Below, one piece after another: positions 9,455-28,507 of a DNA stretch of 32,000 bases. The stretch spans positions 2,340,001-2,372,000 of the forward strand of contig NZ_CP080507.1 of the NCBI RefSeq assembly GCF_019464535.1. Direction: 5' to 3'. This DNA comes from Horticoccus luteus. Lineage in GTDB: Bacteria > Verrucomicrobiota > Verrucomicrobiia > Opitutales > Opitutaceae. The notes beneath the pieces were generated by a model, which worked only from the letters and a program-made list of their open reading frames with translations, ran no database searches and had not been told where the DNA came from. Made by a program: the position numbers and the translations under genes. Numbering within the stretch: the first letter of the stretch is position 1; every line of letters starts with the position of its first letter.

Positions 9455-10219
9455 TCAAAATCCCACGCTCACGCCGCCATCCACCGGCAGCGTCACGCCC
9501 GTGACGAACTTCGCCGCCGGCGAAGCCAGATAGACCGCCGCCCAGCCGATATCCTCGGGCTCACCCATGTCGCCCATCGGCGTGCGGCCAAAAATCTTGG
9601 CTTTGCGCGCCGGATCGCCGTCAAGCGCCCGACGCGACATCTCCGTCGCAATCCAGCCGGGCGCGATGCAGTTCACCCGCACTCCGTGCCCTGCCAGTTC
9701 CGTCGAGTAACCTTTGACCAAGCCCACCATCGCCGACTTCGCCGCCGTGTAGGCGATCACCAGCGGAATGCCAAAAATCGACGCCATCGAGCCGGTGAAC
9801 AAAATCGAGCCGTGCCCGCGCGCCATCATGCCAGGCGCGACCGCCCGCGTGAGCGCATGCGCCCCGACGACATGCGTGTTCAGCACCGCCTGAAACTCCT
9901 CCGGCGTCGTGTCGACCGCGGGCTTCTTCAAATGGATGCCCGCGTTGTTGACGAGGCAAGTCACCGGCCCGACGTCGCGCGTCACCCGCTCCACCAATCC
10001 GGCCGCGCCGGCAAAATCCGTCACATCATGCGTGAACGCGTGCGCCCCGCCGCCGAGCGAGGCCACCGCCGCCTGCAACTCCGCCTCCCGCCGGCCCACC
10101 AGCACCACCTTTGCTCCGGCGCCGTGCATCGCCCGCGCCATCGCCAGCCCGATGCCCGTGCCGCCGCCCGTGATCAGCGCGATCTCGCCGCGCAAGGAAA
10201 ACGCTTCGTCGAATTTCAT
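9455..10219 (-). CDS. Short-chain dehydrogenase/reductase, by context a D-mannonate/fructuronate oxidoreductase (SDR-type UxuB) or KduD-like enzyme
   Basis: Rossmann motif [13 protein letters not shown], catalytic YTAAK, and NNAG. The ATG at 10219 overlaps the uxuA stop in an ATGA. The substrate assignment is inference from its neighbours. Confidence 0.8.
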
Positions 10220-11295
10220 TTGTGTCCCAGAGTCTGCAGCCCCGCCTTGAGATAGCCCATCGCAAACGCCATTCCTGCGTGCCACGGCGCCGCGCAGCTC
10301 ATCTGCGGCGCGTGGTCCGGGATGATCACGCCCTCGAAACCATTCTTCTGCAAAATCGCCAGCACGCGCATCACATCCACTTCGCCGTCGTCGATGAACG
10401 TCTCTTTGTAGGTCGGCACCTTGCCGCGCACATTGCGCAGATGCACATATCCGAGCCGCCCCTGCCGGCTGTAATGCTCGACCACTTCGTAGATGTCTCC
10501 CTCCGTCATCTCGGCGAGCGAACCCACGCAGAACTCCAACGTGTTCGCCGCACTCGGATTGAGATCGATCGCCTTCTGGTAGAGCGAAGGCTGATAGACC
10601 AGCCGCGGCTGGCCGCGTATGGACGGCATCGGCGGATCGTCCGGATGGAGCGCCAGTTTCACCCCCGCCTGCTCCGCCACAGGAAAAATGTCATCCGCGA
10701 AACGCTTGAAACGATCCCACAACTGTTCGGGCGTCGCCGCGGGAATCGTGCCGGAGCCCCGCGTCGGCGCCGCGGGATCCACGATCATGTTCCAAACCAA
10801 ACCATTCGGCATCGGCAGATCATACGGCCCTTCCATCCCCACCGCCGGGGCGCCGCCGCGCGCGTAGTTGCCTTTCGTCCGCCCCGCCACGCCCGCGATC
10901 GAGAAGTTGTAACCCATGATCGGGATGCCCGCCTCGCCCATGTGGCGGACGATCGTCTTCACATTTTCGATGTGCTGCGCCCGCCGCGGGCCATCGATCA
11001 AAATGTCGCCCCAGTGCGCCGGATCGAAATTCTCGATCGCCTCGAGTTTCAACCCTTCCGCCTCGACGTTGCGTCGCAACGCCACGAGTTCATCGGTCGT
11101 CCAAAGTTGGTCCGCATCACCCGCCAGACCCCAACCCCAGTCCGTGCCCGTCGGCTGATCGTCCGGCCCGGCATGCACGCCGCCGCGAAAATAGTCCACG
11201 AGATGCGCGATGACGTGCGTAGCTCCCGCCTGCTTCGCGAACGCGAAGTTTTCCGGCGTGAGCATGTGCTTGTAGAGACCTAACCCGAGTTTCAT
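10216..11295 (-). CDS. uxuA: Mannonate dehydratase
   Basis: It aligns from memory to E. coli UxuA blocks: [24 protein letters not shown] (compare [20 protein letters not shown]..PRIV), YVHLRNV (FTHLRS), [12 protein letters not shown] (GDVDMYEVVKAI) and IIPDHAPQM (MRPDHGHQM). Confidence 0.85.
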
Positions 11296-11411
11296 GCGAA
11301 GGAAGTAATCAAGGCCGGCCGCGACCGCTTTCGACCGGCCCGAGATAACTCCGTCTCATTCCGCCCGTGTCGATCAAGATCCGCTCGATCACCACGCCCG
11401 CCGTCATCCGC
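11171..11411. repeat. Left copy of a 241-bp direct duplication (uxuA 5' end, 13-bp spacer and the last 34 codons of the GH115 gene)
   Basis: It aligns without gaps to 19380..19620 at a constant offset of 8209. My alignment finds 5 mismatches, all in the uxuA-coding part. Confidence 0.95.
11309..11411 (-). pseudogene. Duplicated 3' fragment of the CE4-GH115 gene
   Basis: It encodes ..RMTAGVVIERILIDTGGMRRSYLGPVESGRGRP*, identical to the C-terminus of the intact gene at 19518.. Confidence 0.9.
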
Positions 11412-11584
11412 AAAACGTTCCTCAAAGCCTGCACCCGCCAGCCGACTTTCCTGGCATTTTCAAACAAGGTGCAAGCCAAGGCGGCTCGCAGGCCCTCGAC
11501 GGCAAACAGATCGCACCGATAGTTTCCCCGATCGATCAGATGATGCAACGCGCCGGAGTATTCGATGCGCAACCTTCGAACCAT
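11412..11584 (-). pseudogene. N-terminal roughly 57-codon remnant of a Y1 (IS200/RAYT-like) transposase, fused in frame to the GH115 3' fragment
   Basis: MVRRLRIEYSGALHHLIDRGNYRCDLFAVEGLRAALACTLFENARKVGWRVQA matches the conserved start of REP-associated/IS200-like Y1 transposases (PRxLRIEYPGAxYHVxxRGxxRxxIF..GWxVHAY). The HUH and Tyr motifs are absent. Confidence 0.7.
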
Positions 11585-11660
11585 GCATGACTCGACTCAC
11601 AGGCCGGGTGGCTCTCAAATAGAAAACCAACAAAACACGGCCAGTCCCCCTTGGCTTGAG
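11412..11660 (-). repeat. R1 composite repeat, copy 1 (leader plus the longest transposase remnant)
   Basis: It shares ccgatag.ttccccgatcgatcagatgatgcaacgcgccggagtattcgatgcgcaaccttcgaaccatgcatgactcgactcacaggccgg...ctctcaaa.agaaaaccaacaaaacacggccagtccc with copies at about 12566, 14495 and 18148. Confidence 0.9.
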
Positions 11661-11732
11661 GCCGTTGTGAGGTTAAGAACGAGGCTCGCGTTTCCGACCA
11701 CGTCGTTGCGCCCGGCGAGGGGCTCTCACGGC

Positions 11733-11770
11733 CAAACAAAACGCCGCATCCGGCAAGGCCGAAGCGGCGC
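11733..11770 (-). terminator. Intrinsic terminator after TA module 1
   Basis: The minus strand reads gcgccgcttcggccttgccggatgcggcg followed by ttttgtttgg, 10 nt after the toxin stop. Homologous hairpins follow the other two TA modules. Confidence 0.7.
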
Positions 11771-11779
11771 TTCAGCGGC

Positions 11780-12103
11780 TCAGGCGAAGTTGACGTTGCC
11801 GCACAGGCCGGATTCCCCGGCACGTTGCAGCAAATTCAGCATCTTGCCGCACTCGGCCTGCCGGGTGCGGCGGCGGATCAGGATGATCAGGCCCGGATGC
11901 TCGGGGTGTTCGGCCGCCAGGGACAGGAAGTCATCCCGGTTGCAAGTGACCGTGATCTGGCCGTGCGTCCGGGCGTAAGCGAAGGCCTCTGCGTCCGGGG
12001 TCGTGATCGGTAGCACGTCGCGTAGCACCGTCGCCGTGTGGCCCCAATGGCGCAGCAGCAGCGCGATTTCCTCCGGGATGTCCTGATCGAGGAAGAACGT
12101 CAC
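11780..12103 (-). CDS. DUF5615-like (PIN-like) putative toxin, TA module 1
   Basis: VTFFLDQDIPEEIALLLRHWGHTATVLRDV..TPDAEAFAYARTHGQITVTCNRDDF..HPGLIILIRR. A GTG start at 12103 overlaps the antitoxin stop in a GTGA. Confidence 0.7.
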   Translation of the reverse strand: MTFFLDQDIPEEIALLLRHWGHTATVLRDVLPITTPDAEAFAYARTHGQITVTCNRDDFLSLAAEHPEHPGLIILIRRRTRQAECGKMLNLLQRAGESGLCGNVNFA

Positions 12104-12354
12104 ACCGGACCCTCGCTCATCTGCTGCGCGACCAAGGCATCGATCTCGACGCGGTGATCCTCGTAGTAGGACAAGCACTCGTAAACCTGCGCGCGGGTGA
12201 CCCCAGGGAAGCTGCGGCACACCTCATCAATACTCGCGCCGTTGACGAGGAGGCCCACGACGTCATGCACGCCGATGCGGGTGCCCTCAATGATGGTGCG
12301 CCCCGAGCGAACGCCGGGGATTTGGGTCAGGTAGCGGTAAGTCGTGGCAGGCAT
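12100..12354 (-). CDS. DUF433-type putative antitoxin, TA module 1
   Basis: MPATTYRYLTQIPGVRSGRTIIEGTRIGVHDVVGLLVNGASIDEVCRSFPGVTRAQVYECLSYYEDH is a DUF433 pattern. I place the start at the ATG at 12354, because the listed 12504 start lies in repeat-derived sequence. Confidence 0.75.
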   Translation of the reverse strand: MPATTYRYLTQIPGVRSGRTIIEGTRIGVHDVVGLLVNGASIDEVCRSFPGVTRAQVYECLSYYEDHRVEIDALVAQQMSEGPV

Positions 12355-12419
12355 GAGGGACATCATGACGAGGAAGTCGCTTCCGGCAATGCCGTATCCG
12401 GCCGCGCCAACTCGGCTCC

Positions 12420-12711
12420 GGGATATGCCAAGGGAAACTGGCCGTGTTTTGTTAGTCGATGTGTTTTCGGGCATGGTGGAGGTAGCCGCGCAGGGCGGCG
12501 GCATGGCGGACCCAGTTGGTTGGAGTGCCGAAGCAGCATGCCCGCCGCCGCGAAAATACGCCGCACCGATAGATTCCCCGATCGATCAGATGATGCAACG
12601 CGCCGGAGTATTCGATGCGCAACCTTCGAACCATGCATGACTCGACTCACAGGCCGGATCGCTCTCAAACAGAAAACCAACAAAACACGGCCAGTCCCCT
12701 CTTCGCTCGGC
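12420..12711 (-). repeat. R1 composite repeat, copy 2 (short form bounded by an inverted 17-nt core)
   Basis: ACTGGCCGTGTTTTGTT lies at 12437..12453 and its exact reverse complement at 12679..12695. Between them is the 25-codon transposase remnant MVRRLRIEYSGALHHLIDRGIYRC. Confidence 0.85.
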
Positions 12712-13345
12712 GCCGTGGGCCGCAGCTCGGCCACCCTCGATCCAAGGGTCCTCGTAGGCAACTGGTCGATCGTAGAGCTTATCGAAATACGCGCCGATCT
12801 TCCCTGACGCCCAAGAGACAGCGTATGCCGTGGCCCCAGCAATCATTCCATTCTTGAAGGCATCGCCGAGAGAACCGCCGTTCTGTACAGTCCCTGAGAA
12901 CGCTGAAGCGGATGAATAGCCCACAAAGTAGGCCGCGTTACTGCCGATGGCCCGCCTACGGCGGCAAACTCGGCAGCCACGAACGCTTGAACAGAACCTC
13001 GCGTGCCGCCCTGACCCGACGGGATATTGGAAAGTGTGGAGCCATACGGTTGGGCCGATTGTGCAGGTTATTGCGGCGTTCTATGGGTATCCTTACGTGT
13101 CGGCGGGGGGCGGGTATTCGACGGGCGAAGGTGAGCGGGTTGTTGTTGACGTAGCTGTAGCGGTTGAAGCTCTGACAGTCCTCCCTGTCGTCCACGACCG
13201 GGTCCGCGCTGAGGAACCTGCCCAGCGTAGGGTCATAGACCCGGCCGTTCATGTGGATTGCCAGCTCCGGCGGGTTCGTAGCGCGCGCACCGTAGGAGCA
13301 GGACGCGGTTGCCGGCAGCGGAAGCGGGAAGCCCGGCGCGGGTTT
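12712..13345 (-). pseudogene. Degraded orphan Rhs-type C-terminal cassette (core end plus Gly-rich region, frameshifted, internally inverted, 3'-truncated by R1 copy 2)
   Basis: [47 protein letters not shown] parallels the intact copy at 16.8 kb. [61 protein letters not shown] (12712..12924) parallels aa about 135-205 of the intact copy. The reading frame changes between the segments. Confidence 0.8.
13013..13126 (+). other. Inverted segment of about 114 bp inside the degraded Rhs-CT pseudogene
   Basis: The plus strand encodes [36 protein letters not shown]. This is homologous to [37 protein letters not shown] of the intact gene. Both flanks of the pseudogene are encoded on the minus strand. 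Confidence 0.8.
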
Positions 13346-13539
13346 CGCCGACGTTGGGAGGCGCCCGGGCGTGAGATGGCGGCGAGCGCGCGAGGGATCG
13401 ACCAAGTCAAGGAACGGGAAGCGCCGCCAGACGCGCAGCATTGGCGTTTACCGTGTGTTTTCCCTTCGATGAGGGTGAGACTAGGGCTCGCGAGTCCGGC
13501 CGCGTCGTGCGCTCGGCGAGCGGCTCCGAGCCGCCAATG

Positions 13540-13577
13540 CAAAACGCCGCCGCTGGCACGCCCGCAAACGGCGTTCC
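13540..13577 (-). terminator. Probable (degenerate) intrinsic terminator after TA module 2
   Basis: The minus strand reads aacgccgtttgcgggcgtgccagcggcggcg followed by ttttgcattgg. It is positionally homologous to the terminators at 11733 and 17078. Confidence 0.45.
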
Positions 13578-13602
13578 ACCAGCCGGTAAAAAGGAAGCGG
13601 CG

Positions 13603-13932
13603 TCAGCGAATTTCCACCAGCCGCGTGCCCTGCCCCAGGTGCGCCAAGATCTGCGGCACGCGCGGGATGAACCAGGCCCGCAGCGCCGCGTTGGACGTGT
13701 TGCCCACGCGCAACCACACGACACACGGCCCGGTTTCGGTCGCCTGCACCCGCAGCGCAAAGTCCTCGTCCTTGGTCACGCTTACACAACCGCTGGCCTC
13801 GGCGTGCCGTCAGATCGCGCCGTCGACGGCCCCGCGCAGTCCGATCTCGCGCACCGCTTGCGCCTCGCAACCGGCTTCGGCGAGCCAGCGCGCAAGCGCC
13901 GGAGGCAACTGGGCATCGACCAAAAACGTCAC
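13603..13932 (-). pseudogene. DUF5615-like toxin gene with an in-frame TGA (TA module 2)
   Basis: [83 protein letters not shown].. The stop lies at 13810..13812, where a Trp (TGG) codon would fit. The GTG at 13932 overlaps the antitoxin stop in a GTGA. Confidence 0.7.
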
Positions 13933-14156
13933 CGGCTGGCCACGAGCACGGGGTGATCGAGCTGGGCGGCGGCGTATTCCAGGCTCGCCTTGATGTCGTC
14001 CGCTTCAAGGTCGGGATAGTCCGCGAGGATGTCCGCTTCGGGCACACCGGCCGCAACGAGGTCGAGCACGTCTTTCACCCGGATGCGCATCCCGCGGATG
14101 CACGGGCGTCCGCCGCACTGGTTCGGATTGAAGGTGATGCGCTCCATATAATTCAT
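13929..14156 (-). CDS. DUF433-type putative antitoxin, TA module 2
   Basis: [63 protein letters not shown] is a DUF433 pattern. Confidence 0.8.
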
Positions 14157-14214
14157 GCCGGCATGTTAGGCGCGGATCCCGCCTTCCGCAAGACTCGTGT
14201 CTGGCGGCGCGAGC

Positions 14215-14430
14215 CGGGTGCGTCCGGGTCTGGACTTCCTTCAACTTGCGGATCGAGACCTGCGCGTAAATCTGCGTCGTCTGCAAGCACGCGTGCCCGA
14301 ACTGCTCCTGGACGTGGCGGATGTCGGCGCCGTGCTCCAGCATGAGCGTCGCGCAGGTGTGGCGGAACAGGTGGCCACTGCCGGACTTGCCCACGCCGGA
14401 GCGCGTGACGCAGCCGGTGACGGGCGGCTG
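14215..14430 (-). pseudogene. C-terminal roughly 70-codon fragment of a XerC/D-like tyrosine recombinase (copy 1)
   Basis: [67 protein letters not shown] covers box II (HxxR .. H .. catalytic Y). No N-terminal part is present. Upstream it joins directly to the transposase remnant. Confidence 0.8.
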
Positions 14431-14638
14431 CATGGCTGATCCGCGGGTGTTTGAGTGCCGAAGCAGCATGCGCGCCGCAGCGAAAATGAATCACGCCGAG
14501 GGATTCCCGATCGGTCAGACGGTGCAACGCGCTGGAGTATTCGATGCGCAATCTTCGAACTGTGCATAACTCGACTCATAGGCCGGATCGCTCTCAAATA
14601 GAAAACCAACAAAGCACGGCCGGTCCCCCTTGGCTCGA
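14232..14638 (-). repeat. R1 composite repeat, copy 3 (long form: leader, transposase remnant and integrase 3' remnant)
   Basis: It is collinear with 17884..18292 over about 400 bp, with scattered substitutions. Confidence 0.9.
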
Positions 14639-14647
14639 CCCCCGTAT

Positions 14648-14695
14648 GTGTTACCTATCGCTCCGGTCACAGTGTCACCTATCACTCCGGATCGA
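14648..14695. repeat. Tandem 24-bp direct repeat at a cassette boundary
   Basis: gtgttacctatcgctccggtcaca and gtgtcacctatcactccggatcga match at 20 of 24 positions. They lie between the R1 copy 3 end and the stop of the 125-aa lipoprotein gene. Confidence 0.8.
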
Positions 14696-14713
14696 ACCTG
14701 CTCCCGACCCGCG

Positions 14714-15091
14714 TTATGGAGAATTAGGCACAAACCTTACTCCGTTCTCTCGTATTTCAACTACAATATCGCTGGTACCCAACGCTTTTTTTTGGTCCAT
14801 TATGTCCGAACTTCCGACGACAACTCGATGCTGTCCAAATTCAAATATGTATCGTTTAGCTCTCGGAGCAAACCATTGCCTCACAAGCTTAGCGTGAGAC
14901 GAAAGCGTCACCGTCATTTGCTTGTTTTCATCCTGTATAATCGTCACACTGACAGCTTTATCCGTCTCATTCGAGATCACGACCGATTTGCTTAATGCTA
15001 TAATTTTTCCACAGCCAATAGTCAACGTCACTATTAAGACACACGTAATTACGGCAGGAAAGCGACCGAGGTAAATTCTATTCTTTTTCAT
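14714..15091 (-). CDS. Small lipoprotein, second immunity candidate or orphan immunity
   Basis: Lipobox ..VLIVTLTIGC. The gene is AT-rich, co-directional with the upstream gene, and overlaps it by 14 nt. Confidence 0.6.
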   Translation of the reverse strand: MKKNRIYLGRFPAVITCVLIVTLTIGCGKIIALSKSVVISNETDKAVSVTIIQDENKQMTVTLSSHAKLVRQWFAPRAKRYIFEFGQHRVVVGSSDIMDQKKALGTSDIVVEIRENGVRFVPNSP

Positions 15092-15506
15092 GAAAGAAAC
15101 TATACGTTGCGGGCCCAGTAACCTTAACCAGAGTCCCGCCTAACGTCGATACCGAATGAACGCCATCATCATATATATTAACGAGGCCCACCGATTCCTT
15201 GACTGCTACCTTCCGCTCGTAAACCGTCTCCTTCCCTGACTCGTATAGTACTATTCTGACATCAGGCCGGAGTGGCGATTCTGTCACCTTGACTGTTAAG
15301 ACATAATGCCCTCCGTCCCAATTTGCATGTAAAGCCCATCCACGTGGCAAGTTCAAAACGGCCTTATCAACTATCCATGATGGGGCCGATGATGTAATCA
15401 CGATTCGCCTATCACTATTCTTAGCATTCCAAAACAGAAAACCCATGGCTATAGCAATTACGGAGACTATTAATACCATGATTAAAATCGATTCTTTACG
15501 TTTCAT
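15078..15506 (-). CDS. Membrane-anchored small protein, cognate immunity candidate
   Basis: Its start overlaps the toxin stop in an ATGA. N-terminal TM anchor [20 protein letters not shown]. Composition is AT-rich: 23 of 60 bases are G/C at 15001..15060. Confidence 0.65.
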
Positions 15507-16819
15507 ATTTGACGCATTTTATATACTTCCTCATAGCGCCCACCGCCTACAGGTTTTATCATGATCGGATCCTCGGCTCTCTTCAGTAAATAAATGCTCC
15601 TATATGCCTTAAAAGTCTCGGTTCCAACATTTATCGTATGCACGGGATTCGCGCGAAAGGAAAATGGCTCACCTCGTTCGGTAATTGTTTGATAATACGT
15701 GCGCTTCACCTCCACGAGTTGGTCGTAGCGAGAAAAACCGCTTCGTATCATAAGGAGGTTGCCCACGCCTTCCATTAATTTATCAATGATTGAAAATACT
15801 CTGGCCAGTCTCCCTAGATTTCTGGCGGCTGCAAGCTGCTCTAGTGTTTCTAATGTGGCTCCTGTGACCTCGTCCGGCATCTTCTCGATTCTCAAATCCT
15901 CACCTTCGTGAATATACCAGTCGGAAACTGGAGTCACTTCGTCCACGTGAAACATGTGGCTCGAAATGGCTTCGGCATTGAGCAGATGCTGAAACGCCGC
16001 CGTGATCGCGCCGTTGGCGAATTTCCCTCCACCAAGGAGTGACGCCGTCCCGCCCGCAATCGCGGCAATCGTCGTGCGGACCGCAACGCCCCAGGAGTCT
16101 TTCAAAGACTTAAAGCGCATCGAAATGCTTCCGGCAATCGATCCGGCAAAAGAGCCGTAGAAACCACTGCCAAAGCTTCCGCCTTGCGCAACTGACGCCG
16201 CACCACCGACCACACCGTGAGCTAACGCCCGCCCCGCTTCAATCCACGGATCCTTAAAAGTGACGGGGCCATGGTATTCCAAATCAAAAAACTCGCCGAT
16301 CTTTCCTGATGCCCACGACACGGCGTAAGCGGTGGCCCCCGCAATCATCCCGTTTTTGAAGGCATCCCCGATACTGCCGCCGTTCAGTAACGTTCCGGAA
16401 AAGGCCGACGCCGAGGAATAACCGACATAAAATCCAACCGTTGAGTTGAATAAACCGGCGCCGGCTGCACCACCCAGCCCCGCGGCGAGGCCTTGAGCCG
16501 CGCCAACGTTGCCATTAATAGTGTAACCGACTGAAGCCGATGACGCGGCACTAATTGCTTCGCTGGCAGAGTATGACAAGCCCGCAGCAGACGATAAACC
16601 GGCAGTGTAGTAAGCCGCTGCGATCTGCACTACTTGCCCTATCCCTTCCGTCCATGCCTTCCAATAACCTGTAGGGTCAGTGAAGGTGAGCGGGTTGTTA
16701 CTGACATAGCTGTAGCGGTTGAAGCTCTGGCTATCCCCCGCGTCGTCCACGACCGCGTCAGCACTCAGGAACCGCCCCAGCCCTGGGTCGAATATCCGGC
16801 CGTTCATGTGAACGGCCAA
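15503..16819 (-). CDS. Orphan Rhs-family C-terminal toxin cassette (core end, Gly/Ala/Ser-rich membrane-like region and an unknown AT-rich toxin tip)
   Basis: [50 protein letters not shown] is the end of the RHS repeat-associated core (compare RYYDPxLGRFxSxDP...NxYxYVxNNPxxxxDPxG). No YD repeats lie upstream. The listed start is a TTG, the first ATG is at 16807, and I see no Shine-Dalgarno sequence. The frame is open upstream to a stop near 16935. Confidence 0.8.
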
Positions 16820-17077
16820 GTCTGGTGCCGTCGTAGGCGGTGAAGCGTAGCGGCAGGACGCGGTTTTTCCCGGCGGGAGCGGCGGGCCGGGCGCGAGTTT
16901 TCGAGAAGAGCGGCTTGGGGGCGGCGGCTATGGCCGCGCACAGCAAACCAAGTCAAGGAACGGGCGGCGCGTCAGCGCTCGCGAGGATGGCCGTTAAAGC
17001 GTTTTCTTCCTTCGGTTGAGGTCGAGACAGGGCTCGCGACTCCGGCCGCGTCATTGCGCCCGGCGAGCGGCTTCAGG

Positions 17078-17118
17078 CCAAAGCAAAACGCCGCACCCGG
17101 CAAGGCCGGAAGTGGCGT
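17078..17118 (-). terminator. Intrinsic terminator after TA module 3
   Basis: The minus strand reads acgccacttccggccttgccgggtgcggcgt followed by tttgctttgg, 33 nt after the PIN gene stop. Confidence 0.7.
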
Positions 17119-17151
17119 CAATCGAAGCGGCTAAAGAAGGAAGCGACTCGC

Positions 17152-17571
17152 TCAGAGCACGCCGTGGGCGCGCTGCTCCAGCAAAAACTCGCCGGGCGTG
17201 GCGAGGCGCAGCCCGTAAACCTCTCGGCCGAGTTTTTCGTGGAAGTCGCCCTCGTCGAGCGTGAGCAGCCAGTCGGCACGCGTGGCCAGGGCCGTGATGA
17301 CAACGGGCCGATCTTTCGCCTTCGGGAAGACCAGCGGCTGGTCGAGCGCGACGCTCACTTGCACGAAGCGCATCAGCGGCGCGAGTTGCTTCCAACCGCG
17401 CGCGGCCGTCGCGCCCACTTTCGCCAGATTGCGGCGCGTCTCCTCCTCGCAGTAGTAGGAGCTGACGAGCTCCCAGCCCTGCGTTGCGGCCTGCGTGATG
17501 ACGAAGCGCGACGCGCCTCTCGCCGATCCCGCCGCGGCGAACAGGACACTCGTGTCGAGGAAGAGCCTCAC
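17152..17571 (-). CDS. PIN-domain toxin (VapC-like), TA module 3
   Basis: VRLFLDTSVLFAAAGS..EETRRNL..LLTLDEGDF has PIN-type acidic residues. The GTG at 17571 overlaps the antitoxin stop in a GTGA. Confidence 0.75.
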   Translation of the reverse strand: MRLFLDTSVLFAAAGSARGASRFVITQAATQGWELVSSYYCEEETRRNLAKVGATAARGWKQLAPLMRFVQVSVALDQPLVFPKAKDRPVVITALATRADWLLTLDEGDFHEKLGREVYGLRLATPGEFLLEQRAHGVL

Positions 17572-17807
17572 TTTTTCTTCGCGGCGCGGAACGCCTTCAT
17601 GTCGGCCTCGTCGCGTGCGATCCAAGCGCGGATTTGCGCCTTCGGGATGTCGCGCACGGGCACGGCGGTGGCCGGGTGCAGGAACAGGCCGCCTTCGCGT
17701 TCCTCGACGAGGAGCATTGGGTTGCGGAGCTTATCGAGTCCCATTTTCCGCCGCAGTTCGGGCGGCAACGTCAGGCTGCCGCGTTTGGAGAGTGGAAGTG
17801 TGGTCAT
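17568..17807 (-). CDS. AbrB/SpoVT-fold antitoxin (VapB-like), TA module 3
   Basis: MTTLPLSKRGSLTLPPELRRKMGL is a looped-hinge-helix type N-terminus. I prefer the start at 17807 over the listed 17822, because 17808..17828 is a perfect palindrome. Confidence 0.7.
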   Translation of the reverse strand: MTTLPLSKRGSLTLPPELRRKMGLDKLRNPMLLVEEREGGLFLHPATAVPVRDIPKAQIRAWIARDEADMKAFRAAKKK

Positions 17808-17835
17808 GCGGCAATGCTGCATTGCCGCAATGCGG
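17808..17835 (-). promoter_or_regulatory. Candidate operator of TA module 3
   Basis: gcggcaatgc-t-gcattgccgc is a perfect 10-bp inverted repeat abutting the antitoxin ATG. A third overlapping half-site ccgcaatgcgg follows. Confidence 0.5.
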
Positions 17836-17868
17836 TTCGCAAGCCTCGCGCGGCGATAATTTGGCCCC

Positions 17869-18084
17869 CGGATGCGTCGCGGCGTGGACTTCCTTCAACT
17901 TGCGAATCGAGACCTGCGCGTAAATCTGCGTAGTCGCGAGCGAGGCATGCCCAAGCTGCTCGTGGACGTGGCGGATGTCAGCGCCATGCTCCAGCATGAG
18001 CGTCGCGCAGGTCTGGCGGAACAGGTGGCAACTGCCAGACTTGCCCACGCCGGAGCGCGCGACGCAGCCGGTGACGGGCGGCTG
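17869..18084 (-). pseudogene. C-terminal fragment of a XerC/D-like tyrosine recombinase (copy 2)
   Basis: [67 protein letters not shown]. It has the same 5' junction ([18 protein letters not shown]) as copy 1. Confidence 0.8.
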
Positions 18085-18292
18085 CAAGGCTGATCCGCGG
18101 GTGTTTGAGTGCCGAAGGAGCATGCGCGCCGCCGCGAAAATAAGTCACGCCGATAGATTTCCCGATCGATCAGACGGTGCAACGCGCCGGGGTATTCGAT
18201 GCGCAACCTTGGAGCCATGCATGACTCCACTCACAAGCCCGTCGGCTCTCAAACAGAAAACCAAAAAACACGGCCACTCCCTCTTGGCTCGG
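17884..18292 (-). repeat. R1 composite repeat, copy 4 (long form)
   Basis: It is collinear with 14232..14638 and carries the transposase remnant PRLRIEYPGALHRLIDREIYRRDLF. An extra 28-nt partial copy of the same motif follows at about 18298..18325. Confidence 0.9.
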
Positions 18293-18385
18293 CCCCCCCC
18301 CGATCGATCGGATGGCGCAACGCGTTGTTCTTCATTTCTGGCAAGCGGCATCCCCGAGGCTTTGGCTGGCTCGTGCGGGGTCACC

Positions 18386-18907
18386 TTATCCCTGCTTTCG
18401 AGACCACAAATCCACTTCTCCGGAGATGTGCTTACTGAAGTCCACCTTTACGCGAGCGCCCCACGGCGGATCGGCAAGCTCAATCGCATTAACTATCCAC
18501 TCCAATATCTTTTTACGCTCTTCTATCAGACGTGCATCATCACGAACTTTTCGCGACCTCGACTCAGCAATTTTATTAATCTCATCCAAAGCCAAATCCA
18601 CCTTTCCTGAAGCATAATGCGCTGCTGCCAAATGCATCGTATCGACCATAATCGCTATTGCTATTCGGTCATCGTCATCATGCCTAGCCAATCTTGATTC
18701 CAACACCCCTTTCCCGTTTTCAAGCAAGCTAACTGCTTCGGAAGCCGATCTCGCACGCATCGCCTCGTCGATAATATTATCGTTATATGCGATCCAAAGC
18801 GGACGAGCATCTAGTCTCGTGACCCCGTTCTCGTCGCGCTTTGCGCACCCTGCCGTCATGAATTGAATAAGCAAAGTCAGTATAATTATCTTTATTATTG
18901 TATTCAT
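18386..18907 (-). CDS. Lipoprotein, immunity candidate for the truncated toxin upstream
   Basis: Lipobox LIQFMTAGC. The gene is AT-rich, and its start overlaps the upstream reading frame's stop in an ATGA. Confidence 0.6.
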   Translation of the reverse strand: MNTIIKIIILTLLIQFMTAGCAKRDENGVTRLDARPLWIAYNDNIIDEAMRARSASEAVSLLENGKGVLESRLARHDDDDRIAIAIMVDTMHLAAAHYASGKVDLALDEINKIAESRSRKVRDDARLIEERKKILEWIVNAIELADPPWGARVKVDFSKHISGEVDLWSRKQG

Positions 18908-19233
18908 CTCTCGAGAGCCAATGACGACGCCCAGTACCTCATTTTAAGTACTCGCTGCGCTCGATTTACAGCATCGATGCGATTTAGAAAAACAGCATTT
19001 CCGTCGTAATCGCGCACGGGGGTATTAACAAATCTTACATGATCTACATTCACTTCATTATTCTTTCGCGTGACAATCTCAAACTCAAGGGTCGTGTAAG
19101 CACGCCAAGGGCCGGATGCCTTGTTTAGCATCCCAGCCCTTGTATTTGCAACTGAAAAAAACCACCAAACCTCACGTCTTGAATATTGACTGCCGCACGT
19201 CGAGCAAGGCGCTAGGCGCGTTGCCGCTCTGCG
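18904..19233 (-). pseudogene. Probable C-terminal toxin-tip remnant, 5'-truncated
   Basis: The frame is open from 19233 (preceded by a TAA at 19234..19236), while the listed ATG is at 19131. Composition is AT-rich. It is translationally coupled to the downstream lipoprotein gene. Upstream it abuts R1 copy 5 with no Rhs core present. Confidence 0.45.
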
Positions 19234-19261
19234 TTACCGTCCTTCAGTAGGGCCCTCGTAA

Positions 19262-19403
19262 GGATATACCAAGGGAGGACTGGCCGTGTTTTGTTAGTCG
19301 AAGTGTTTTCGGGCATGGTGGAGATATTGGCACAGGGCGGCTGCATGGCGAATCCCTAGTTGGTTGGGGTGCCGAAGCAGCATGCCCGCCGCCGCGAAAA
19401 TAG
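19262..19403 (-). repeat. R1 composite repeat, copy 5 (short form, truncated at the junction with uxuA-derived sequence)
   Basis: ggatataccaagggaggactggccgtgttttgttagtcgaagtgttttcgggcatggtgga...gccgaagcagcatgcccgccgccgcgaaaata parallels 12421..12563 of copy 2. Confidence 0.85.
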
Positions 19404-19620
19404 TCCACGAGATGCGCGATGACGTGTGAAGCTCCTGCCTGCTTCGCGAACGCGAAGTTTTCCGGCGTGAGCATGTGCTTGTAGAGACCTAAACCGAGTT
19501 TCATGCGAAGGAAGTAATCAAGGCCGGCCGCGACCGCTTTCGACCGGCCCGAGATAACTCCGTCTCATTCCGCCCGTGTCGATCAAGATCCGCTCGATCA
19601 CCACGCCCGCCGTCATCCGC
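19380..19620. repeat. Right copy of the 241-bp direct duplication
   Basis: See 11171..11411. Its first 24 nt could derive from either uxuA or R1, because the two share that sequence. Confidence 0.95.
19404..19504 (-). pseudogene. Duplicated 5' fragment of uxuA (first roughly 34-40 codons)
   Basis: It encodes [36 protein letters not shown].. and then runs into R1-derived sequence. Confidence 0.9.
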
Positions 19621-28473: not shown

Positions 28474-28507
28474 GGGCGTCCGGCTCGGTCGGCCGAGCCG
28501 GACGCCC
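28474..28507 (-). terminator. Perfect 15-bp stem / 4-nt loop hairpin immediately after the TonB-dependent receptor gene, with no U-tract
   Basis: gggcgtccggctcgg tcgg ccgagccggacgccc lies 6 nt downstream of the TAA at 28514..28516. It could be an intra-operon attenuator or an RNA-stability element rather than a full terminator. Confidence 0.5.

Follow-up and report, generated by a model that had tools for sequence, protein, structure and literature searches.

Orphan Rhs and CdiA toxin tips occur in widespread arrays that shape bacterial competition, and the arrival of new tips and their in-frame placement are attributed to homologous recombination. Orphan toxin/immunity arrays of this kind, formed via C-terminal displacement, were described in several studies (Jackson 2009; Poole 2011, PMC3150448; Koskiniemi 2014, PMC3967940; Steele 2017, PMC5727410); integrase-like genes were also reported near Rhs loci, their role being left open (PMC5727410), and XerC/D recombinases were found adjoining polyimmunity loci (Zhang 2012, PMC3482391). 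In both reports the integrase genes near such loci were left unexplained (PMC5727410, PMC3482391). The recombinase-associated acquired interbacterial defence clusters (rAID-1), restricted to Bacteroidales, are defined by a 5′-terminal recombinase of XerD type that has an identity of at least 44% to BF9343_RS08045, followed by at least two co-directional downstream genes with low guanine-plus-cytosine (GC) content (Ross 2019, 10.1101/471110). The locus considered here is an island of about 8 kb (11412-19379) in a 32-kb stretch of DNA, the window, from the soil verrucomicrobium Horticoccus luteus (Opitutaceae); read on the minus strand, it consists of three collinear units in which integrase remnants, toxin-antitoxin (TA) pairs, a non-coding arm and Rhs C-termini follow one another. 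The island is probably a decayed tandem array of three members of a family of integrative elements of the Opitutaceae.

The integrase fragments of the island led to its relatives, and a metagenome scan gave 80 loci (related loci are labelled with L and related proteins with P). L018 holds an intact 321-aa XerC/D-like integrase, with XerC PRK01287 as the best NCBIfam match (359 bits), whose 3′-end is 85% identical in nucleotides to the integrase remnants of the window (int′). In all 11 close relatives having enough flank and an integrase at least 62% identical (L018, L020, L023, L025-L029, L031, L032 and L035), the integrase is followed on its own strand, at a distance of 320-1760 nt, by the start of an Rhs core-end, and in six loci a second core-end is found 2-6 kb upstream. 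The backbone between the toxin/immunity genes and the integrase comprises a DnaG-type primase of 820-969 aa (P-loop region, Zn_ribbon_DnaG, Toprim and DNAG_N) and a divergent HTH_3 (Cro/CI-like) regulator; L018 and L025-L028 have an intact integrase together with the replication and regulation genes, and L026 contains two tandem elements with a 1239-nt backbone repeat in common (93.6%). The order in intact copies is Rhs core-end/toxin/immunity, Cro/CI-like regulator, primase, integrase, a variable slot, the arm and the next core-end; the natural boundary of a unit is the Rhs core-end. The first-pass annotation of the window had proposed, as one of two hypotheses, the serial accretion of small integrative elements, each equipped with an integrase, one TA pair and a set of Rhs C-terminus and immunity genes: such elements do exist intact on related Opitutaceae contigs, with the primase and the regulator in addition, and intact genes of the two kinds that it suggested to seek are present in relatives, the integrase in L018 and, for the repeats discussed below, a transposase gene in L016. 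A conserved mini-protein, considered when the first protein search returned short integrase fragments only, was dropped, the metagenome scan having given many intact 321-aa genes; a viral origin is unsupported, viral contigs holding only 45-50% relatives of the integrase.

The slot between the integrase and the core-end is either empty (about 330 nt) or filled with one of five unrelated cargoes, mostly TA pairs: a MazE-like/PIN pair in L025, L028 and L031, the same as in window unit 1; a pair of 162 and 59 aa in L020, L029 and L035; HicBA in L027 and the P0046 loci; DUF433/DUF5615 in L033/L034 and in window units 2 and 3; and DUF4238 in L026. It is sharply bounded, its downstream edge being always within about 10 nt of the CGCTTCCTTCTTTAGCC motif. 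The exchange of cargo between constant flanks thus characterizes the family as a whole. Different members of the family match the different units of the island: the int′-TA-arm part of unit 1 agrees with L025 along 1.1 kb (79% identity), and int′-DUF433-DUF5615 of unit 2 is collinear with L033/L034 (71%). Each unit having its own closest foreign relative, accretion of distinct elements is favoured over duplication of one unit in situ.

Two observations concern the relatives themselves. From integrase residue ~200 downstream, L033 (9919-15959) and L034 (451-6490) share 96.5% identity; on the upstream side of this residue L033 continues with the rest of a frameshifted integrase, and L034 with the 3′-end of a different Y1-family element that has five tandem terminal repeats of about 28 nt. 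The two loci are a natural before/after pair for the disruption of the integrase by an insertion sequence. In L018, two integrase/arm/core-end modules (10034-10826 and 14516-15302) face each other as inverted copies, 76% identical over about 800 nt, and the region between them contains toxin/immunity genes, including an RNase_A_bac toxin and a CdiI_2 immunity gene.

What survives in H. luteus are the right-hand ends of the elements, in which the 75 final codons of the integrase precede the TA pair, the arm and, downstream, the Rhs C-terminus with the immunity genes (Table 1). The three units, the R1 repeats at which each of them starts and the shared blocks had been located correctly in the first-pass annotation and are similar far above chance (BLAST E 1e-20 to 1e-152). 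Its statement that no intact recombinase is left also held, as the window contains no intact integrase or transposase gene and the island no intact primase gene. Pfam recognizes C-terminal integrase fragments in units 1 and 2; the int′ of unit 1 is devoid of the N-terminal catalytic part and shows 80-87% nucleotide identity to the 3′-ends of the intact integrases in L018 and L027. As for the cargo, a different TA pair had been claimed for each unit, which is borne out for PIN_3 and for two distinct DUF433/DUF5615 pairs, whereas the AbrB partner in unit 1 is weak and the DUF5615 gene of unit 2, split in two, is broken. The toxin of unit 1 matches PIN_3 (E 2.8e-6, 17625->17152, Pfam); the 84-aa open reading frame (ORF) beside it matches MazE_antitoxin with E 0.04, below the cutoff, and is weakly MazE/AbrB-like. 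Adjacent small genes of recognized families, namely PIN_3, DUF433 and DUF5615/PIN_10, mark these as predicted TA pairs; between the pairs of units 3 and 2 no significant tblastn match was found. Unit 3 is without an Rhs part.

Table 1. Features of the island and of its edges, listed in the reading direction of the minus strand.
Feature	Position	Strand	Content
Right 241-nt repeat	19380..19620	-	Intact GH115 3′-end, intergenic region, truncated uxuA copy of ~40 codons; GH115_C and UxuA by Pfam
R2 copy	19262..19402	-	23 nt of uxuA codons 33-40 (19402->19380), Y1 3′-end, 3′ inverted repeat (19298->19269); 89% to 12421-12558
Low-GC cargo	18386..19131	-	75-aa ORF and 173-aa predicted lipoprotein; GC 49%; no family match
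R1 copy, unit 1	18076..18324	-	5′ inverted repeat, Y1 codons 1-25, 23-nt uxuA-like segment, 20-nt Y1 3′ piece
int′, unit 1	17868..18075	-	The ~75 C-terminal codons of a XerC/D-like tyrosine recombinase; match to Pfam Phage_integrase confined to profile positions 115-169
TA pair, unit 1	17152..17822	-	84-aa MazE/AbrB-like antitoxin (weak) and 157-aa PIN toxin; both ORFs intact
Arm, unit 1	16820..17151	-	Terminator hairpin (~17102), second hairpin, CCCGTTCCTTGACTTGG box (16964->16947), ~55-nt junction motif (16867->16811) ending at GTTCACATGAACGG
Orphan Rhs C-terminus, 438 aa	15503..16819	-	Core-end, Gly-rich conserved region, unique tip of ~150 aa; K0B96_09800 (P0097, 100%)
Two small ORFs, 142 and 125 aa	14714..15506	-	Low GC; presumed immunity genes; no family match
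R1 and int′, unit 2	14214..14643	-	R1 14643->14422, int′ 14421->14214; same junctions as in unit 1
TA pair, unit 2	13603..14156	-	DUF433 intact (14156->13929), DUF5615 (PIN-like) in two fragments (Pfam)
Arm and damaged Rhs C-terminus, unit 2	12712..13602	-	Arm 13602->13265; Rhs remnant from 13264
Mini-element R1+R2, 296 nt	12421..12716	-	Internally deleted Y1 gene with ~28-nt inverted repeats; Y1 N- and C-terminal coding parts match L016
TA pair, unit 3	11780..12504	-	Second, divergent DUF433 and DUF5615; both ORFs intact (Pfam)
Truncated arm, unit 3	11668..11769	-	Terminator (11755) and start of the second hairpin; cut by the last R1
Last R1	11412..11665	-	5′ inverted repeat and Y1 codons 1-57, native continuation, without the uxuA-like segment
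Left 241-nt repeat	11171..11411	-	GH115 3′-end fragment, intergenic region, 5′-end of intact uxuA

The arm is a conserved non-coding part of the units. A homologous terminator and spacer had been noticed in all three, and indeed 11668-11769 corresponds to 17017-17117 (84%, E 2e-20) and 13127-13599 to 16682-17145 (73%, E 4e-62), with a terminator-like hairpin in each (at 13559 in unit 2); the accaagtcaaggaacggg stretch, described as common to the two larger units, was recovered by the repeat finder at 13401 and 16947. Many arms of the relatives also have the terminator hairpin, a second hairpin and an invariant CCCGTTCCTTGACTTGG box; a consensus fold of the arm shows hairpins for which net covariation support was absent (covariation term +0.55), and neither an attC-like nor an RNA structure is claimed. 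In 14 short orphans from 12 loci, the Rhs coding similarity starts at one point, GT(T/C)CACATGAACGG, which encodes VHMNG, and upstream of it lies a conserved non-coding motif of about 55 nt with CTACG...CTACGA repeats. By nhmmer this junction motif occurs always and only directly before short orphan core-ends (E 1e-11 to 1e-4), and no copy without a following Rhs core-end, as a possible array end, was found. The junction motif and GTTCACATGAACGG are present at every short orphan, and the similarity breaks there: between L023 and L027 the arms are 91% identical, the sequence is the same through CACATGAACGG, and it falls to 58% afterwards, whereas units 1 and 2 of the window follow the opposite pattern, with 63% in the arm and 85% after the junction. 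All four combinations of arm type and core-end type are present. The discordant similarity on the two sides of the junction indicates a recombination breakpoint at GT(T/C)CACATGAACGG. Outside this family, short Rhs orphans from Pseudoalteromonas (P0202) and Candidatus Thioglobus (P0191) start a few residues from (L/F)(V/I)HMNGR, suggesting that the boundary may be general and not specific to the Opitutaceae.

The 438-aa orphan of unit 1 starts at this junction. It matches TIGR03696, the core-end family, at residues 3-51 (48.9 bits, cutoff 32.5), and Pfam gave no match to RHS_repeat, the YD-repeat shell. In its homologues residues 1-285 are common and the sequences then diverge, the tip being shared with P0099 only; no Pfam or NCBIfam family matches the tip. 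The GC content of the tip and of the two following ORFs is 45-47%, against 62-68% around them, and position together with low GC is the reason for which the 142- and 125-aa products are presumed to be immunity proteins. By their position, the two ORFs of the low-GC cargo at the right-hand end of the island are probably what is left of the first element's toxin tip, together with its immunity gene. An Rhs core-end with a Gly-rich region, a tip and immunity genes had been assigned to both larger units, and the core-end of unit 1 is recognized as such; the remnant of unit 2 is instead disturbed by an inversion and cut by R1. It retains residues 1-46 (13264->13127), a piece on the plus strand (12986-13084) and residues 126-202 (12942->12712). 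The plus-strand piece (DPTGYWKVW...) is inverted with respect to the rest of the gene, with one breakpoint at the PLTF/DPTGYW core boundary. Elsewhere in the H. luteus genome, P0148 (K0B96_10485) is a 639-aa Rhs fragment whose core-end is 73% identical to that of the island; a full-length H. luteus rhs gene is not among the matches listed.

In the intact relatives the integrase adjoins the arm and the toxin tip is on the opposite side of the junction. Because integrases usually lie beside attP, a circle integrating into an rhs core-end is the simplest reading of this arrangement. It may thus be proposed, tentatively, that the intact relatives are small integrative elements of an undescribed kind, with an attachment site inside rhs at the core-end codons VHMNG, a TA slot, and an integration that swaps the toxin tip, the island being the fossil of three such events. 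Besides the arm and the core, the circular element would bring a core-end of its own, joined to a new tip with the immunity gene; integration into the core-end of an rhs gene would rebuild the gene with the new tip, and the old one would become a downstream orphan. C-terminal displacement would thus proceed by site-specific and not by homologous recombination. In this proposal the fixed slot between the integrase and the attachment arm would gather TA pairs that lock the element in place. The array itself was probably formed by successive elements entering at the Rhs core-end, each of them shifting the earlier tip further downstream.

Several results weigh against an origin by such integrations. 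No pair of empty and occupied sites and no circular junction was found, and flanking direct repeats were searched around the minimal element in L033 with no result. The fetched loci have no full-length rhs gene directly upstream of the arrays, the 'long' Rhs ORFs in them being of 507-643 aa, and the 32-kb window has no other core-end or full-length rhs gene. Moreover, the R1-int′ fusions of units 1 and 2, having identical junctions, are not independent, so that at least part of the array arose by duplication, gene conversion or cassette exchange and not by simple accretion; and no simple order of events fits R1 copies that are 6-17% diverged inside an outer 241-nt repeat that is 2% diverged.

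As for the present state of the island, the regulator, the primase and most of each integrase would have been lost, with pieces of a Y1 transposable element now in place (see below). With no intact recombinase or primase, the array is now unable to move by itself. The genes still intact in it are those of the PIN toxin and antitoxin, of the unit-3 DUF433/DUF5615 pair, of the 438-aa orphan and of the two presumed immunity proteins, and it contains several direct repeats prone to deletion, namely the outer 241-nt repeat, the four R1 and the two core-ends. By analogy with TA pairs in integron arrays and genomic islands, the intact pairs would penalize loss of the island through recombination between these repeats, and this penalty would retain the immunity genes and the orphan toxin, which could serve after recombination with an rhs gene via the core-end of about 150 nt, or could be expressed alone. 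Stabilization by TA pairs of a silent toxin/immunity reservoir, given in the first-pass annotation as the second hypothesis, is plausible, and is compatible with accretion and not an alternative to it.

The locus resembles the described Rhs orphan arrays in having truncated Rhs genes with the core-end only, followed in series by putative variable tips and presumed small immunity genes of low GC, and in that the core-end gives homology for recombination with a full-length rhs. It differs from them in the absence of an upstream full-length rhs and in the constant start of the short orphans, all of which begin at one nucleotide position after a conserved non-coding arm. Furthermore, the cassette is here linked with an integrase, with a primase and with a TA slot, which indicates a part of a discrete mobile element rather than a mere leftover of homologous exchange. 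With rAID-1 and the XerC/D-linked polyimmunity loci it shares the linkage of a XerC/D-family recombinase to presumed orphan immunity genes and toxin remnants, a skewed GC content, repeated intergenic sequence and a structure suggesting active acquisition. A rAID-1 cluster, however, has one 5′ recombinase and a long array of mostly single immunity genes, whereas here each unit has an integrase or its remnant, intact copies have a primase backbone, and a TA slot and the Rhs core-end, as repeated junction, complete the plan; co-directional low-GC genes occur here too, but the host belongs to the Opitutaceae (Verrucomicrobiota) and not to the Bacteroidales.

Serial integration at a regenerated attachment site, which builds arrays whose older members lack an integrase and stay mobilizable in cis, is known from the cis-mobilizable elements (CIME) of streptococci. 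The presumed attachment site differs from theirs in lying inside a polymorphic toxin gene, to which the element would supply a new 3′-end, and the remnants are further broken by a Y1 element. TA cassettes are also known to stabilize chromosomal integron arrays and islands, as in superintegrons, mosAT of SXT and sgiAT of SGI1; as in these cases, predicted type II TA pairs occur in the island and its relatives among dispensable cargo, beside the integrase/attachment end, where they would counter-select deletion. Unlike in these cases, the predicted pairs are confined to one fixed slot, from the integrase stop codon to the terminator, with no recognizable attC. The arrangement had been taken as undescribed at first pass: no description was found in the literature of an integrase-primase element with Rhs tips and a TA slot, nor of an integrase-mediated displacement of tips, but the association of XerC/D recombinases with polyimmunity loci and of integrase-like genes with Rhs is already on record.

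The R1 repeat that opens each unit belongs to a different kind of element. BLASTN and the repeat finder gave four copies on the minus strand (18297->18076, 14643->14422, 12716->12493 and 11665->11512), mutually 83-94% identical (BLASTN E 1e-46 to 1e-63) and starting no more than 5 nt from the unit boundaries first drawn. R1 consists of a 5′ inverted repeat of about 28 nt, CCAAGGGGGACTGGCCGTGTTTTGTTGGT, followed by sequence coding for MVRRLRIEYSGALHHLIDRG..., that is by codons 1-25 of a Y1 transposase gene, or up to codon 57 in the last copy. A second repeat, R2 (12558->12421 and 19402->19262, 89% identical), is the 3′-end of the Y1 gene with the 3′ inverted repeat, in an orientation inverted relative to the outer ends of R1; R1 and R2 together at 12716->12421 form an internally deleted Y1 element. 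All four R1 and both R2 copies fall within 8 kb; in the remaining 24 kb of the window BLASTN found none, and the exact 29-nt R1 pattern has no match in species-representative genomes. An intact relative is present in L016 (Cephaloticoccus), where a complete 310-aa gene lies between inverted 28-nt repeats that are 100% identical; its product has a Y1_Tnp domain (E 3.6e-10), with the REP-associated tyrosine transposase (RAYT) family REP_Tyr_transpos as top NCBIfam match (72 bits, cutoff 80). The Y1 fragments of the window match the N- and C-termini of this gene, and the last R1 is 66% identical in amino acids to its residues 1-53. An intact Y1 gene from H. luteus is not among the matches listed for the family.

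The internal R1 copies share a peculiar scar. In three of them, the Y1 5′ part is followed by a 23-nt stretch, TATTTTCGCGGCGGCGNGCATGC, and this by the Y1 3′ region at GCATGC. The stretch is native to codons 33-40 of the adjoining uxuA gene and occurs at 11171-11193, 12536-12558, 14466-14488, 18120-18142 and 19380-19402, the last forming also the right junction of the island (19402->19380). It was considered as an attachment core of the integrase and rejected, since it lies between pieces of the Y1 gene and none of the related elements contains it. The Y1 3′ piece (20 nt in unit 1) is joined, in units 1 and 2, to integrase residue ~238. On the outer side, R1 meets four different sequences, twice after immunity genes, once within a toxin gene and once within the non-coding arm, and this shows R1 to be a secondary scar and not the native boundary of the units. 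A further fragment of 27 nt from the Y1 5′-coding region (18324->18298, 89% to sequence internal to R1) lies directly outside the inverted repeat of the R1 at 18297, suggesting a nested or tandem insertion. The element resembles RAYT and IS200/IS605 in having a Y1_Tnp gene between inverted short conserved repeats, with solo copies elsewhere; it departs from them in a C-terminal extension of about 170 aa and in the few repeat copies per genome, and the window keeps only the gene ends, as the 296-nt deleted derivative and as fragments.

The edges of the island carry a feature that is missing from the first-pass annotation, a direct repeat of 241 nt (11171-11411 and 19380-19620, 98%) that runs from the GH115 3′-end across the intergenic region into uxuA, of which it includes the first ~40 codons. 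The five differences between the copies all fall in the uxuA part; two are synonymous, one gives Thr->Ser and one Val->Gly. Both joints between island and chromosome, of which that at 11411/11412 connects the last R1 to the GH115 3′ fragment, fall within Y1 coding sequence and coincide with short microhomologies; the inverted repeats point inward, and the 241-nt duplication of the target encloses the two joints. This pattern is as expected for the single-crossover integration of a circle in which the 241-nt segment separates Y1 codon 57 from the Y1 3′-end. The repeat is unrelated to the junction sequence of the arms. In the Opitutaceae metagenome-assembled genome (MAG) of L014, a Y1 3′ fragment of the same family lies between duplicated pieces of both adjoining host genes, 120 nt at 81% and 266 nt at 93% (359-476/5757-5875, 5162-5426/5852-6117 and 841-910/5426-5495), and a second, inverted Y1 end is found 4.5 kb away. 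Since host-gene duplications accompany a Y1 fragment there too, the bracketing of the island may have a mechanistic cause.

Three other accounts of the locus have to be set beside the accretion of integrative elements. The first-pass annotation had compared the units to a gene-cassette array, in which R1 or the terminator-spacer would act as an attC-like site and a recombinase encoded elsewhere would shuffle TA and toxin cassettes. Variable cargo between conserved boundaries, a slot sharply bounded family-wide, the hairpins within the arm and the precedent of the XerD-associated, integron-like rAID-1 arrays (10.1101/471110) speak for such a system, which is nevertheless very unlikely. R1 is the end of a Y1 transposase gene and not a palindromic site, and is absent from the related arrays; the intact integrase of the relatives scores 94 bits against a cutoff of 265 for integron integrases, its best match being XerC; neither an IntI nor an attC site is recognized; the integrase is co-directional and inside each unit, reduced to 75-codon fragments in the window; the units comprise several genes with their own terminator; and the hairpins lack net covariation. 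Tandem duplication in situ of a single R1-int′-TA-arm-Rhs unit, followed by divergence, deletions and replacement of the TA pairs and with no separate mobile elements, has other arguments. Units 1 and 2 have R1-int′ blocks of about 430 nt whose internal junctions are the same (14214-14643 and 17868-18297, 88%, E 3e-152; 83%, 94% and 90% by sub-block), the presence of the same uxuA-like segment in all internal R1 argues for a single origin of the scar, and the core-ends of the window resemble each other closely after the junction. Duplication alone is all the same improbable: the TA pairs come from unrelated families, the arms of units 1 and 2 are far less alike (the unit-1 arm is 83% identical to that of L027), each int′ is as near to L027 (87-90%) as to the other int′ (90%), every unit is collinear with a different metagenomic element, and other genomes, in which R1 is missing, have this modular order and the same alternative TA cargoes.

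A third account, which deserves to be kept in mind although the balance leans the other way, regards R1 as a multicopy repeat of the repetitive extragenic palindrome (REP) or insertion-sequence type, whose position at the boundaries is secondary, resulting from insertions, deletions mediated by insertion sequences or homologous exchanges, with a Y1-driven transfer of the island to the GH115/uxuA site. The Y1 protein family is large, annotated as RayT or transposase, and its genes are often on contigs of ~1.1-1.5 kb, near gene size, as multicopy elements behave; solo inverted repeats stand beside unrelated genes in other MAGs, and in L004, L020 and L034 the integrase is cut short by fragments of other insertion sequences. 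The different outer neighbours of R1, the interior Y1 sequence at both island ends and the case of L014 point in the same direction. The copy numbers do not: apart from the crowding of R1 and R2 in the island, the 20-nt core of the R1 outer sequence is present in seven other MAGs of Opitutaceae or Verrucomicrobiota with only 1-2 exact matches to the repeat per MAG, unlike the abundance of REP sequences, and, as said, the listed matches include no intact H. luteus gene. Above all, this account explains the scars and perhaps the relocation of the island, but not the int-TA-arm-Rhs order, which exists without R1. The role of R1 as native unit boundary, assumed at first pass, is not supported, and the accretion of distinct elements remains the likely origin of the array.

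Judging from the intact relatives, new toxin tips may be added to Rhs genes by an integrase dedicated to this task. As the family links each tip to an integrase, a primase and an arm ending at one core-end position, it provides a concrete and testable proposal for tip acquisition; the TA pairs, a regular and exchangeable part of such elements, offer a simple reason for the persistence of silent toxin/immunity reservoirs. The copy in the window is decayed and is directly useful in that it leads to the intact elements, which are the more valuable.

Two ORFs of the window are 100% identical to H. luteus proteins (P0001 and P0097). The genes around the island are involved in xylan utilization and comprise GH115, GH10, GH3, a GDSL esterase and UxuA. 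An Rfam scan of the island gave a single match, at chance level. The sole other repeat in a whole-window BLAST, which missed the island repeats, is a 34-nt palindrome at 28474-28507, 94% self-complementary.

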